64,000 nt of DNA. Source: Candidatus Woesearchaeota archaeon. Lineage in GTDB: Archaea; Nanobdellota; Nanobdellia; Woesearchaeales; JAZDKJ01. This document shows, in pieces, positions 27,001 through 30,000 of this stretch. The stretch covers positions 96,001-160,000 of the forward strand of contig JAZDKJ010000012.1 in the NCBI GenBank assembly GCA_043803105.1. The letters run 5' to 3'. Each line of letters opens with the position of its first letter. The first letter of the stretch is position 1. Made by a program: the position numbers.

Positions 27001-30000
27001 CTTGCCTGATGCTAGCATTTCAAGGCATCCACGCTGCCCGCATCCACAGACAACCCCCTTCGTTATTGTTGGGTCTATAACCATATGTCCAAACTCCCCT
27101 GCTCCTCCTATTGCGCCAGAGTATACTCTTCTGTTGATTATTATTCCTCCGCCTATTCCAGTCCCCCATATGACTCCTATTGATATTTTCTTTTTCCTTG
27201 CTGCTCCAAATGTTGCCTCAGCCAATGCAAAGCATTTTGCGTCATTCATAGCATCAGCCTTTAGCCCTGCTGCTTTCTCCAATTCTTTGCTGAGGTGCAA
27301 TCCATTCAGGCAAGTTAGTGTTCCGCCTCCCCAGATAATTAAGCCAGTATCATCGATTAGCCCTGGCAAAGAGACACCAACTCCATCAACCTGTGTTCCT
27401 TGAAGTTTTGCCTCGTCCTTAAGGTCTCTTATGACTGAGACAAGATTAGAAATTACCTGTTTTTTCCCTTTTTGTGGTTCTGTTGCAGTCCTTCTTGAGG
27501 TGATGAACTTGCCGTTCGCGTCTATGATGGCACCCTCAATCTTGGTGCCTCCCATATCTATTCCGATTGCATACTTCATACCTGCTCCTCAACAAAAGCT
27601 GTTTATTAATCTTTTGAAAATGTTTAAATATCAAGACAGAACATTGCTTGTTATGAAATGCGAAATCTGCAAGAAAACCATCGAGGAAACCTTTCTGAAG
27701 AAGGTCGTAGGTAGTTATCTCAAGGATAAGAAAGGAAAGAAGCACCTGATCTGCCCTGACTGCCAGAAGAAATATCCGAAGAAGGAAGACATTCTTACGC
27801 GGCTCTAGCCGCATATTATAAATACCAAAATCAATTAACCCTTCTAATGCCTCTGTAGCACAGTAGCTACTGCGTCTGCCTCGTAAGCAGAAGATCGGGA
27901 GTGCAACTCTCCCCAGAGGCTTTTCAGGTTTTGTTTGGATGTTTTTCCCAGGTTTTTGCATATTGCAAAAAGCTGGTTGGGAGCGCACATCTCCCCAAGG
28001 GCTTTGTTTCGATGTACTCTCATTTTAGTTCAATTTTTTCCCTATCCGCAATATGTTGTATCTGTATAGTGATAACAAAGGAAACATTTATATACTTGTT
28101 CTGCTTGGATTTATCATAGGATGAAAGTCAAAAAATCAATTGAAAATGGCCTTGAAAAGGCCTCCGAATGGCAAATAGCAACTGCAGGTATCCTTGCTTT
28201 GCGGGGCAGGTCTTTTGCGAACAGAGTCAAGAGAAACTTGGTAAAGAATGACAAACTTGATTACTGGACTGAGGTTGCCTTGAACAGGTGGTATGTGCCT
28301 ATTGACAAGATTCCCAGGGAAGACAGGATTTTCTACCACCCACCTACAATAAATCGAATCATACAAGGAAATCTCCTCCCTTCCATGAGACATGGCTCTG
28401 GCATGGGTGAATACAAGCACATTGCGTTGATTCTTAAAGGTTTTAAGGATGTTCCTTTGGAGGAAATCGCCAGCACCAGAACGTACTTCGAGGATGGCTG
28501 TAGCGATTACTCAAGTACAATGGTTAGCGCAGATTTCCTTTTCTATCTTGTGCGCTCAAAAGAAGAAGAAAACATCCTTATGAACGCAAAAAAACCAGTG
28601 TACTTCTTGGGGCCAGAGATTAAATACAAAAGTTAGTCAATCGTAAATAAGATTTTCTTCTCCATATGCCAATCATTTCACCACACAAATCTTTATATTT
28701 GCCGAGGATACTTCATCTTCATGGACCTTGAATTGCACATGCATCCCTTTAACAATCTGCTTGAGGATATAGTGCATGCCATGGACTCAAGGAAGATTGG
28801 TATATTGGCTGTTGAATCACTCGATGCTTCGATTTTTCCAAGGGTTCGGGCTGCAGCAAAAAGCCTTTATTCCAATTTAATAATTGATGATGCCGGGGTA
28901 AAGCTTCCCTCAGGAAAGACTATCTGGAATGGAAGAGAATACAGTACCAGTGAAGGATTTCACTTGCTTACCATTGGATATTCGCTTGATACCAGACCTT
29001 ATACTGAGATAAGGAGGATTATAGATATTAGCTTGAAGCACAATGCACAGGTAATCCTCGACCACGGTTTTGTCGACAATAATCTTACAAGGACTGCAGG
29101 TCACATTTCCAGAGAGTCTGAATTTGAGTTGAACGATCTCTGCAAAGAATATCGCAAAGAAATAGCGTTGGAATGGAATGCTTATTGCAAGCCATGGATG
29201 AGGGCCAGCCTCTTGCTCATTTTGAATGCGCTCGGCCACAAGACACGATATTATGATGTGAACAAGAAGGTTGTAGAATTATCTAAGAGCATAAACAATT
29301 TTTATGGCCCGACACAAACTAAGCTTCTTCCCATCCTTACCGGAACAGACTTACATGCTATACAAAGAAAAATGCTTGAACTCATGGGAACTGCTAGGGT
29401 TAAGGCTGATGTGCAGGGAGAAAGCCCTTCAGAAATTTTGGCCTCTTTTAAGGAGCTGGTGCGTGCAGGTAAATACGAAAATACTTATGACTATGTTGGT
29501 TTTGTTCACCTTTTGGAAGCCTTTTGCCTACCGAAATTGTTCTTTAAGGACTATCAAGGTTTATAAAGAATACATACCCTTTTTAAATCCCAATAGCTTA
29601 CTGCCGCTCATGCAACGAGAGTTCAAGTACTATCCAGAGGATTTCAAGCCCTTGCCAGTCAAGGTCCTGCACATGGATCTAGTGTTTCATGTTTTTGATG
29701 ATCATACTAATGTCTCTTCTGACTTAAAGTTGTTTTCCTTAAAGGATTTGAGGGAACTTAGGCTTGATGCCTCAGACCTGAAAATTCTTAGGGTGTCCTG
29801 CGACAAGGCAGATCTGACTTTTGAAGTCAAGCCTAAGGACAATAAGCTTCTATTGAATTTCAAAAATGTTCTTAAGAAAGGTAAAGAATTTGTTATTCAT
29901 ATCGAATCAGTCTGCAGGCCAACCAAAAACATTCTGGAAGGCCTCTATTACGATGTCACACCGCAAGGTGCGCCTCCGACAATGATAACCCAATGCCAGC

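Follow-up and report, generated by a model that had tools for sequence, protein, structure and literature searches.

The tRNA-Thr(CGT) gene of the analysed window, a stretch of 64,000 nt, carries A18 and G55 where cytoplasmic elongator tRNAs have the near-invariant G18 and U55, and positions 18 and 55 covary within the order to which this archaeon belongs. We consider it likely that the G55 genes of this genome encode working tRNAs with an A18/G55 elbow and that C55, which occurs in three other genes, goes back to a separate and recent change. Cytoplasmic tRNAs are taught to have pseudouridine 55 and the G18-U55 contact without exception. In two reviews, U55 or pseudouridine 55 is called universally conserved, and the terms 'G55' and 'A18' do not occur (PMC7912444; PMC4810234). 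With G at position 55, pseudouridine 55 is impossible, and about half of the sampled genomes of the order (72 of 151) have a whole isoacceptor family without pseudouridine 55 and the G18-U55 contact. The features of the window are:

27814..27824, plus strand: TATA-like box TATTATAAATA, 25-35 nt upstream of tRNA position 1, read from the sequence
27849..27921, plus strand: tRNA-Thr(CGT), 73 nt, intron-less, CCA not encoded, discriminator T at 27921 (ARAGORN, Rfam RF00005, sequence)
27849-27855, plus strand: acceptor of Thr(CGT); the 3' acceptor strand ends at 27920
27862..27869, plus strand: D-loop AGTAGCTA, with A18 = 27865 and G19 = 27866
27897-27901, plus strand: T-stem GGGAG, forming the 5-bp stem GGGAG/CTCCC
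27902..27908, plus strand: T-loop TGCAACT, with T54 = 27902, G55 = 27903, C56 = 27904, then A57, A58, C59, T60
27922..27975, minus strand: 54-nt copy of a repeated element (CAGCTTTTTGCAATATGCAAAAACCTGGGAAAA...), directly 3' of Thr(CGT) and in reverse orientation
27976..28003, plus strand: orphan Thr tRNA 3' end (GTT, T-stem GGGAG, loop CGCACAT, CTCCC, acceptor strand CAAGGGC, T)

The cloverleaf of Thr(CGT) matches RF00005 from model position 1 to 71 with 60.4 bits, far above the gathering score of 29, and ARAGORN calls the same tRNA at 27849-27921 on the plus strand. The anticodon loop has 7 nt, the D-loop 8 nt, the anticodon stem 5 bp and the variable loop 5 nt, with two linker bases. Apart from the missing G18 and U55, no tRNA characteristic is weakened: G19-C56, U54, A58 and G53-C61 are present in Thr(CGT) as well as in Ala(CGC) and Thr(TGT), while Thr(GGT) has C54 and C58 instead. 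Judging from its sequence, the TATA-like box is a candidate archaeal promoter, and similar boxes lie upstream of Thr(GGT) and Thr(TGT).

Over the whole genome, standard finders recovered 6 (Rfam) and 9 (ARAGORN with introns) tRNA genes; the remaining ones come from our own scans for an acceptor stem plus T-arm with an optional intron at 59/60, which are noisy and surely incomplete. Among the 34 genes delineated in this way, 27 have T55, four G55 and three C55. Because T55 prevails in 27 of 34 genes and G55 recurs together with A18 in relatives, G55 goes beyond chance. The genes without U55 outside the window are:

C6:303770-303841: Ala(CGC), 63.2 bits (gathering score 29), D-loop AGTAGCA, T-loop TGCGACT
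C6:33535-33644, minus strand: Thr(TGT), D-loop AGTAGCTA, T-loop TGCGATT, two bulge-helix-bulge introns
C6:525422-525512: Thr(GGT), D-loop AGTAGCTA, T-loop CGCACAT (G55)
C8:119515-119662, minus strand: Met(CAT), T-loop TCCGAA, intron, T
C10:102920-103091, plus strand: Trp(CCA), left unnamed in the initial annotation, T-loop TCCGAA, intron, T
C6:403675-403875, minus strand: Pro(CGG), T-loop TCCAAA, intron, T

Together with Thr(CGT), these make seven genes, six of which the initial annotation had listed. Their sequences confirm the lack of U55 in all six, the five outside the window lie where they had been placed on their contigs, the underlying cloverleaf numbering is right, and the Rfam scores given for Ala(CGC) and Thr(CGT), 63 and 60 bits, agree with the measured 63.2 and 60.4 bits; the seventh gene, Thr(GGT) with G55, had been missed. 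The D-loop motif AGTAGC is indeed common to the G55 genes, but the description of this loop as lacking the GG pair holds only for G18, which is changed to A18, and not for G19, which is retained, as the relatives' loop AGTGGCTA demonstrates. The gene at C6:33535-33644 had been taken for Met(CAT) but is Thr(TGT) with an intron of 24 nt at 30/31 and one of 13 nt at 37/38, both with clean splice motifs. Its positions 1-31 are 100% identical to Thr(TGT) of one relative, and after in silico removal of both introns ARAGORN reports a Thr(tgt) of 73 nt that is identical to three relatives at 68 of 73 positions. A decayed Met gene, for which all single-intron readings give T37, is ruled out at this locus by the similarity to Thr(TGT) and the two-intron reading.

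Canonical Thr genes of relatives (loci L009, L010, L017 and L018) have the D-loop AGTGGCTA with the same length and the same flanks as AGTAGCTA, so the change in the D-loop is G18 to A18 with G19 kept. An arrangement with two antiparallel elbow pairs (G18-C56 and C19-G55) was dropped on the ground of this single change. Among 29 Thr genes found by similarity in 24 genomes of the same order, 18 have TGC T-loops, combined with A-G at positions 18-19 in 17 cases and with A-T in one, and 11 have TTC T-loops, all combined with GG; mixed states did not occur. Each of the four possible states was counted by unbiased pattern matching in the same 151 genomes of the order, with a reversed-pattern control for each state:

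A18 + G55: 105 matches in 72 genomes; reversed control 1
G18 + U55: 67 matches in 52 genomes; reversed control 0
A18 + U55: 1 match (relative G147); reversed control 0
G18 + G55: 0 matches; reversed control 2

For this table, Fisher's test gives p = 7.7e-48 with kinship ignored, and such p-values overstate independence because genomes of one order are kin. The matched spans of the Thr(TGT) genes of two relatives (G099 and G119) differ at 3 of 54 nt, namely at positions 18, 55 and 57, and A18/G55 and G18/U55 are found together in single genomes, e.g. G081 and G101. A further 262 bystander tRNAs, which were parsed from the fetched loci and not chosen by pattern, comprise 133 with GG and TTC, 81 with AG and TGC, none with non-GG and TTC, and eight scored as GG with TGC; those listed among the latter mostly read AGGAGC or similar, i.e. 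an A still precedes G19. The comparison with relatives, which the initial annotation had lacked, thus bears out the A18/G55 state as conserved and covarying, and finds C55 only in this species among those compared. Nearly all of the order-wide A18/G55 matches carry NGT anticodons, and a few carry CGC; Ala(CGC) is also A18/G55 in the same-genus genome G001, where a 59/60 intron pairs C with G55, and in G008 from another family. The CGCACAT loop of Thr(GGT) occurs in Thr genes of both this genome (G000) and G039. Within the order, A18/G55 is nearly limited to Thr and Ala(CGC), a restriction that is not expected of a structural swap without any selective effect.

Structurally, the G18/pseudouridine-55 contact would be exchanged for A18/G55, with G19-C56 and the rest of the cloverleaf canonical. 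In the canonical elbow, G18 is inserted between positions 4 and 5 of the T-loop and touches position 2 (PMC4810234). A18 is homologous in position to this G18 and may take its place in the 57/58 slot, while G55 would stand in for U55 as loop position 2; such an alternative elbow of equivalent geometry would preserve the L-shape. T-loops outside tRNA were reported to be UGNRA in 88.7% and CGNRA in 10.9% of cases with an almost invariant adenosine intercalator, and tRNAs to be set apart from them by U at position 2 (bioRxiv 10.1101/2022.12.26.521914). The loop of Thr(CGT) fits this UGNRA consensus, and Y-G-N-R-A followed by two loop bases describes TGCAACT, TGCGATT and TGCGACT alike; CGCACAT of Thr(GGT), in which loop positions 1 and 5 are both C, fails at position 5 and fits neither UGNRA nor CGNRA. 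Since U54-G55-C56-R57-A58 together with A18 corresponds to a UGNRA T-loop with an adenosine intercalator, a type found in riboswitches and other large RNAs, we read the combination as a compensated elbow swap, in which the intercalation of A18 and the geometry or hydrogen bond between A18 and G55 are predicted by analogy.

Compared with the canonical elbow, the cloverleaf, loop lengths, G19-C56, U54, A58 and purine 57 are the same, whereas A18 and G55 differ and exclude pseudouridine 55. With the UGNRA T-loops of FMN and cobalamin riboswitches, the loop shares U-G-N-R-A, two bases that would be flipped out, an adenosine that the partner loop would offer and a position 3 that is free for a long-range Watson-Crick pair, here C56-G19; in contrast to those, the motif would here dock to the D-loop of a tRNA and not to a riboswitch receptor loop. 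Another translational tRNA without G18G19 and T54-pseudouridine-55-C56 is tRNA-Pyl, which in Desulfitobacterium hafniense has G55, A57 and A58 (PMC1851642). The same source describes tRNA-Pyl as lacking the 19-56 pair (A56) and as compact, with a 5-nt D-loop, a 6-bp anticodon stem, a 3-nt variable loop and one base between acceptor stem and D-stem, whereas Thr(CGT) has none of this compactness and the tRNAs described here are of ordinary dimensions with G19-C56 retained.

The three Thr isoacceptors of this genome, Thr(CGT), Thr(TGT) and Thr(GGT), share the A18/G55 state. When 209 tRNAs of relatives, among them canonical Thr, were used as queries, no Thr loci other than these three were hit, and the G18+U55 pattern had 0 matches in G000; the scope is a genome that is 96.5% complete, in 13 contigs with 34 delineated tRNA genes, so that a canonical Thr gene may have been missed. 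Since no canonical Thr gene was found, the A18/G55 Thr tRNAs would have to serve translation. They are not spare copies, as every Thr gene found has G55. The upstream TATA-like boxes and the clean splice motifs of Thr(TGT) are signs of working genes, and we regard the G55 Thr genes as putative working elongator tRNA genes that are probably expressed and aminoacylated. A look-up for the 3 kb around Thr(CGT) listed neither a sequencing run nor an RNA data set.

The C55 genes are a case separate from the G55 genes. They retain G18 and contain an intron at 59/60 in which CGGA or TGGA, at -6 to -3 from the 3' end, is base-paired with positions 54-57 and places a G opposite C55; that the opposite intron base is G in all three genes had been recognised correctly before. 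With cleavage sites placed by the generally known rule, the 59/60 introns form a bulge-helix-bulge motif, a 4-bp helix with a bulge of 3 nt on either side, in which TCCG pairs with CGGA (Met and Trp) or TCCA with TGGA (Pro(CGG)) and the T-stem is the outer helix. In this they equal archaeal bulge-helix-bulge introns at other non-canonical positions, from which they differ in that T-loop positions 54-57 provide the exon strand of the central helix and that the pair at position 55 is C-G and not U-A in three genes. Among 21 examined genes with a 59/60 intron, position 55 faces the intron as C-G in three, U-A in 17 (one of them, at C10:28584, in a doubtful register) and U.G in one. The orthologues in the same-genus genome G001 all have U55 (Met TTCAAAT, Pro(CGG) TTCAAAT and Trp TTCAAA, intron, T). 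C55 probably goes back to a recent change from U55 in this species in genes with a 59/60 intron, where positions 54-57 form the 4-bp central helix and C55 pairs with the intron G; in the mature tRNAs, G18 would then face C55. Because this exon strand lies in the T-loop, T-loop and intron sequences constrain each other, and a splice motif inside the T-loop can draw a 'universal' base off the consensus. As an intron G also wobble-pairs with U, the C55-G pairing represents compatibility and not strict compensation, and any selective reason for C55 would be speculative.

The 54-nt element in the 3' flank of Thr(CGT) belongs to a family whose copies at other loci of the same genome are T-loop introns, and the orphan 3' end behind it has the same CGCACAT loop as Thr(GGT). 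We rejected the orphan T-arm at 27976-28003 as the 3' half of a split tRNA because none of 21 matches to the required acceptor sequence GCCCTTG lies in a tRNA-like context. A Pfam scan of 10 ORFs beside Thr(CGT), aimed at an integrase or viral genes, gave seven ordinary cellular families and three without match; none is an integrase.

A possible but unlikely alternative is that A18/G55 is a functional mark that sets tRNA-Thr and Ala(CGC) apart or hides them from a reader of the elbow or T-loop, such as an enzyme that modifies the T-loop, a nuclease that cuts tRNA, a synthetase or editing domain, or the recombinase of a virus or mobile element. Besides the isotype restriction within the order, this would accord with an all-species scan in which the 115 pattern-bearing tRNAs among the matches listed comprise at least 79 archaeal Thr-like, at least 16 bacterial Cys, at least 17 Pro, at least two Tyr and at least one other, with 11 Verrucomicrobiota-titled loci in which 123 of 131 clustered tRNAs have G55, and with the duplicated tRNA 3' ends and inserted elements that adjoin A18/G55 genes of G000 and G008. 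Thr genes of either state occur alternately among the families of the order and side by side in a single genome, which indicates that the cell machinery accepts both; no candidate reader was identified, and the occurrence on different isotypes in different phyla argues against a single amino-acid-specific reader. The restriction is also explicable by descent of the isoacceptors from one gene body, as the Thr genes share acceptor and D-arm. Less probable still is that the variant T-arm owes its spread chiefly to small mobile or integrative elements on which it would hitch-hike and which target tRNA 3' ends and carry their own 3' copy. In favour of this, 3'-end copies with one element family between them follow Thr(CGT) (27922-28003), Ala(CGC) (two copies) and Thr(GGT), the same arrangement follows Ala(CGC) of G008, and the orphan copy has a foreign acceptor strand together with the CGCACAT loop known from Thr genes of G000 and G039. 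However, A18 lies in the 5' part, which a 3' exchange does not replace, and yet A18+U55 was found once and G18+G55 never, so that selection on the pair would still be needed; the 10 neighbouring ORFs scanned contain no integrase. In a wider speculation, to which we give little credence, A18/G55 would be a second natural class of tRNA elbow that cells and mobile elements use as a mark, exempting chosen tRNAs or accessory arrays (Verrucomicrobiota) from pseudouridine 55 and from readers or attackers of the elbow or T-loop, and exchanged via elements inserting at tRNA 3' ends.

That the A18/G55 genes are decaying copies or function outside translation is very improbable. In its favour, the codon of Ala(CGC) can by standard wobble rules also be read by Ala(UGC); the other Ala genes were not found. 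A precedent is the non-proteogenic tRNA-Gly of Staphylococcus aureus, involved in cell-wall synthesis, a natural bacterial tRNA without U55 and the canonical D-loop purines, which lacks both G18 and G19, is redundant with proteogenic tRNA-Gly and is kept from translation (PMC13443448). The genes described here differ in retaining G19 and its pair with C56 and in having no canonical paralogue: all three Thr anticodons were found only as A18/G55 in G000, where redundancy with a canonical isoacceptor is not seen. Their cloverleaves are intact at 60-63 bits, and 72 of 151 genomes of the order have retained the state, with strict covariation. For the C55 genes only, editing of the transcript from C to U, followed by pseudouridine formation, might yield canonical mature tRNAs, which we consider improbable. 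Such editing has an archaeal precedent at tRNA position 8 in Methanopyrus, and at the level of the gene a C would favour the splice helix, whereas mature tRNAs usually have U. On the other hand, no evidence for a suitable deaminase was found, and C55 with G18G19 occurs in three intron-less tRNA genes among the bystanders of two Patescibacteria-type loci (L073 and L147), which suggests tolerance; cytidine at T-loop position 2 is likewise tolerated in some riboswitch T-loops (bioRxiv 10.1101/2022.12.26.521914).

Under the preferred reading of working tRNAs with an A18/G55 elbow, the 105:67:1:0 table amounts to a double-mutant cycle of a tertiary contact that nature has carried out cleanly, and the covariation ties the tRNA elbow to general T-loop/receptor rules known from riboswitches. 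In bacteria, tRNA-Cys, tRNA-Pro and sets of clustered tRNAs show the matched swap as well. A literature search conducted largely outside subscription journals yielded no description of a natural covariation of A18 and G55, which leaves its absence from the literature unproven. For annotation, T-loop invariants are unsafe filters in DPANN and CPR genomes. The findings raise the questions how RNase P, the CCA-adding enzyme, the ribosomal L1 stalk and T-loop modification enzymes handle A18/G55, whether pseudouridine 55 is dispensable with G55, and whether the alternative elbow may be useful in engineered tRNAs. As a side observation without bearing on the G55 tRNAs, a Pus10 search of this genome reached only 32 bits, against a cut-off of 200 bits, and did so at the locus that scores 88.4 bits for TruB_N; with so weak a Pus10 match and the TruB_N score at the same locus, a Cbf5/TruB-type enzyme is present.

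A 73-nt tRNA-Thr(CGT) gene lies at window positions 27849-27921 on the forward strand, called by ARAGORN and scoring 60.4 bits with Rfam RF00005 (threshold 29). Its parts are:

acceptor strand GCCTCTG with 3' acceptor strand CAGAGGC and discriminator T
T8 and A9
D-stem GCAC/CTGC
27862-27869: D-loop AGTAGCTA
anticodon arm TCTGC-CTCGTAA-GCAGA
variable loop AGATC
T-stem GGGAG/CTCCC
27902-27908: T-loop TGCAACT
25-35 nt upstream of the gene: TATA-like box TATTATAAATA

From the layout of the T-loop, position 55 is therefore G (27903). Thr genes of the same order occur as two variants that do not differ in length, one joining D-loop AGTGGCTA to T-loop TTCAAYT and the other D-loop AGTAGCTA to T-loop TGCAAYT, and the D-loop difference is thus a change of G18 to A18 with G19 kept. 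The initial annotation had rightly seen a D-loop without the GG pair, a description that comparison with the relatives' D-loops narrows to position 18. The gene is neighboured by ordinary cellular ORFs (an ABCE1-like ATPase, a ROK kinase and an M1 peptidase, among others), with no integrase seen among the 10 ORFs scanned around it, in a genome of 1.56 Mb (13 contigs, 96.5% complete) of which the window covers C12:96001-160000.

Relatives, which the initial annotation had not consulted, show that A18/G55 recurs and covaries (105:67:1:0 across 151 genomes of the order). Among 29 Thr genes called by ARAGORN in loci of 24 relatives found by similarity, 18 have TGC T-loops, with A-G at 18-19 in 17 and A-T in one, and the 11 with TTC T-loops all have GG; mixed combinations were absent from these 29 genes. 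Against query bias, four patterns differing at positions 18 and 55 only were counted in the same 151 genomes:

A18+G55: 105 matches in 72 genomes, reversed-pattern control 1 (including 4 matches from the unpublished genomes G121 and G132, on which no claim rests)
G18+U55: 67 matches in 52 genomes, reversed-pattern control 0 (including 1 match from the unpublished genome G112, on which no claim rests)
A18+U55: 1 match (G147), reversed-pattern control 0
G18+G55: 0 matches, reversed-pattern control 2

Fisher's test on these counts gives 7.7e-48, a value that overstates independence because the genomes are kin. The better sequence arguments for coupling are that the two states alternate between families of the order, that both coexist within one genome in G081 and in G101, and that the matched Thr(TGT) spans of the near-identical pair G099 (G18/U55) and G119 (A18/G55) differ at 3 of 54 positions, namely 18, 55 and 57. 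The sole A18+U55 gene among the 151 genomes (G147:C25:9327-9404) is a Thr(TGT) gene with an extra insert, which may be a transitional stage of the swap or a copy in decay.

Residue 19 is described as pairing with C56 in tRNA (PMC4810234; PMC7912444), and U at T-loop position 2 as setting tRNAs apart from other T-loops (bioRxiv 10.1101/2022.12.26.521914). The same preprint gives the T-loops of FMN and cobalamin riboswitches as 88.7% UGNRA and 10.9% CGNRA, and the intercalating nucleotide of non-tRNA T-loops as adenosine in nearly all cases (99.96% in FMN riboswitches). The variant tRNAs, with U54-G55-C56-R57-A58 and A18, share both the general loop sequence and the preferred intercalator of riboswitch-type T-loops, and keep the G19-C56 pair. 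By this analogy we read A18/G55 as a compensated swap, in which one elbow contact would be exchanged for a known equivalent. G55 is not isomerisable to pseudouridine; the genome has a Cbf5/TruB-type gene, for the other tRNAs, and nothing in it scored above the cut-off for Pus10. Lack of U55 has been described for tRNA-Pyl, with G55 in D. hafniense (PMC1851642), and for a non-proteogenic tRNA-Gly of staphylococci (PMC13443448). Both of these are structurally or functionally special and lack the canonical D-loop purines altogether. A conserved A18/G55 pair in ordinary elongator tRNAs was not found described in an incompletely covered literature, in which a prior report is possible, and two T-loop and elbow reviews (PMC7912444, PMC4810234) do not mention the pair.

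A stricter A18/G55 pattern, applied to one genome per prokaryotic species, matched at least 116 stretches. Among the matches listed, ARAGORN called 115 pattern-bearing tRNAs in 112 loci, comprising 79 archaeal Thr-like bodies, 16 bacterial Cys(GCA), 17 Pro, 2 Tyr and 1 other. Within this same listed set, the archaeal records bear the titles Candidatus Woesearchaeota, Nanoarchaeota or "uncultured Methanosarcinales", while Cys comes from records of Saccharibacteria, Patescibacteria, WOR-3 and others, and Pro from records of Verrucomicrobiota, Gemmatimonadaceae and Haliangiales. A further 262 tRNAs parsed in the loci of the listed matches are bystanders that the pattern had not picked out: GG/TTC in 133 cases and AG/TGC in 81, with no case of TTC alongside a D-loop lacking GG. 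Apparent bystanders with GG and TGC, among the cases listed, mostly read AGGAGC or AAGAGGA, with A still before G19. The order of the window's organism is accordingly a Woesearchaeota-like one within DPANN, and the swap arose in several unrelated lineages.

Eleven Verrucomicrobiota-titled loci (L039, L061, L066, L070, L086, L104, L107, L113, L121, L128, L146) consist of dense tRNA clusters, the largest with 22 genes within 8 kb, and G55 accompanies A18 in 123 of the 131 tRNAs called in them. In some Arg genes of these clusters the 19-56 pair is swapped as well (TGGAACT with D-loop AC; TGAGAGT with AT or TA), and AGCGTTA (A54...T58) is seen in some genes. Long tRNA arrays were reported in Verrucomicrobia (PMC8421152), in a paper whose main text does not contain the terms G18, U55 or tertiary.

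In the genome holding the window, an incomplete census delineated 34 tRNA genes, 27 with T55, 4 with G55 and 3 with C55, the isotypes of several intron-bearing genes being our own sequence reading. Standard finders returned six tRNA genes above the Rfam threshold and nine by ARAGORN with introns. The G55 genes are:

window 27849-27921, forward strand: Thr(CGT)
C6:33536-33644, reverse strand: Thr(TGT)
C6:525422-525512, forward strand: Thr(GGT)
C6:303770-303841, forward strand: Ala(CGC)

Thr(TGT), given as C6:33535-33644, had been wrongly taken for Met(CAT). Introns flank its anticodon loop CTTGTA-A on both sides, one of 24 nt at 30/31 (helix CGGC/GCCG) and one of 13 nt at 37/38 (helix CTTG/CAAG). 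Thr(GGT), with G55 in its T-loop CGCACAT, was overlooked in the initial list of six tRNAs without U55. When 209 tRNAs of relatives, including canonical Thr, were compared with the genome by blastn-short, Thr matches fell only at the Thr(CGT), Thr(TGT) and Thr(GGT) loci, and the G18+U55 pattern had no match in the genome. From these two results we infer that all Thr codons would depend on A18/G55 tRNAs, unless a further gene escaped the scans or falls within the 3-4% of the genome that is missing. Ala(CGC) is likewise A18/G55 in G001, of the same genus, and in G008, of another family. These observations point to the G55 genes as probably the ones in use for translation.

The T-loop CGCACAT (C54, G55, C56, A57, C58) of Thr(GGT) at C6:525422-525512 is also found in an orphan fragment at window 27984-27990 and in a Thr(TGT) gene of another family (G039:C161:625-690); with C at both 54 and 58 in place of the U54-A58 pair, this loop matches no T-loop consensus known to us. 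At C6:245346-245466, a tRNA with the anticodon loop CTTATA-intron-A reads as Ile(TAT), and AUA may be read in this genome by a UAU tRNA instead of a modified CAU tRNA.

The C55 genes each have an intron at 59/60 and GG in the D-loop:

C8:119515-119662, reverse strand: Met(CAT)
C10:102920-103091, forward strand: Trp(CCA)
C6:403675-403875, reverse strand: Pro(CGG)

The C10 gene had been correctly placed without an isotype, which is Trp(CCA), and the intron base opposite C55 is indeed G in all three. Their splice motif is a textbook bulge-helix-bulge with the T-stem as outer helix, positions 54-57 paired with the four intron bases before the last two, and a 3-nt bulge on each side; putative cleavage sites follow the rule for such motifs. 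An intron at 59/60 occurs in 21 of the 34 delineated genes, several of which have two or three introns, and the pair at 55 in these 21 is C-G in 3, scored as U-A in 17 (one, C10:28584, in doubtful register) and U.G in 1. In G001 the T-loop is an uninterrupted TTCAAAT in Met and Pro(CGG), and TTCAAA-intron-T in Trp. Judged from U55 in these orthologues, C55 is young and goes with the T-loop intron. The change from U55 to C55 would strengthen a weak 4-bp splice helix, and the mature tRNA would tolerate G18 facing C55. Three tRNA genes without introns, in two Patescibacteria-type loci, combine C55 with GG, and cytidine at T-loop position 2 is described as tolerated in some riboswitches (bioRxiv 10.1101/2022.12.26.521914), so C at position 55 can be tolerated. 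Editing of C55 back to U in the transcript seems improbable against the tolerance seen in those genes and riboswitch T-loops. The anticodon-loop introns of the Met(CAT) and Trp(CCA) genes carry GATGA-type motifs and resemble C/D-box guide RNAs, and that of Met(CAT) is kept in relatives. Archaeal tRNA-Trp introns are known to hold C/D-box guide RNAs.

Two further features follow the Thr gene of the window:

27922-27975, reverse orientation: 54-nt copy, directly after the gene, of an element that elsewhere in the genome forms T-loop introns
27976-28003: diverged copy of a Thr tRNA 3' end, next after the element

Two such units of element and 3'-end copy follow Ala(CGC), a short 3'-end copy follows Thr(GGT), and Ala(CGC) of G008 has the same arrangement, a pattern that hints at recurrent insertion at the 3' ends of tRNAs. 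Insertion there cannot alone account for the coupling of 18 and 55, since A18 is in the 5' part. The element starts with CAGCTTTTT; a short hairpin and AAAAACCTGGGAAAA come next. Its sites are window 27922-28003, C6:303842-304054, C8:119663-119774, C6:403675-403875, C6:521332-521612, C6:187243-187379, C7:13023-13289, C12:~181570 and C8:~150868. It forms the 59/60 introns of several tRNAs and also occurs at a 16S-rRNA-like site, and reverse-oriented copies adjoin tRNA ends beside duplicated tRNA end segments; the element is apparently a family of mobile bulge-helix-bulge introns. At C6:221181-221251, C8:113780-113873 and C6:449376-449472, a copy of the tRNA's first 14 nt stands upstream of the tRNA gene, and a conserved hairpin, CTCACAGAAC..GTTCTGTGG, comes after this copy.
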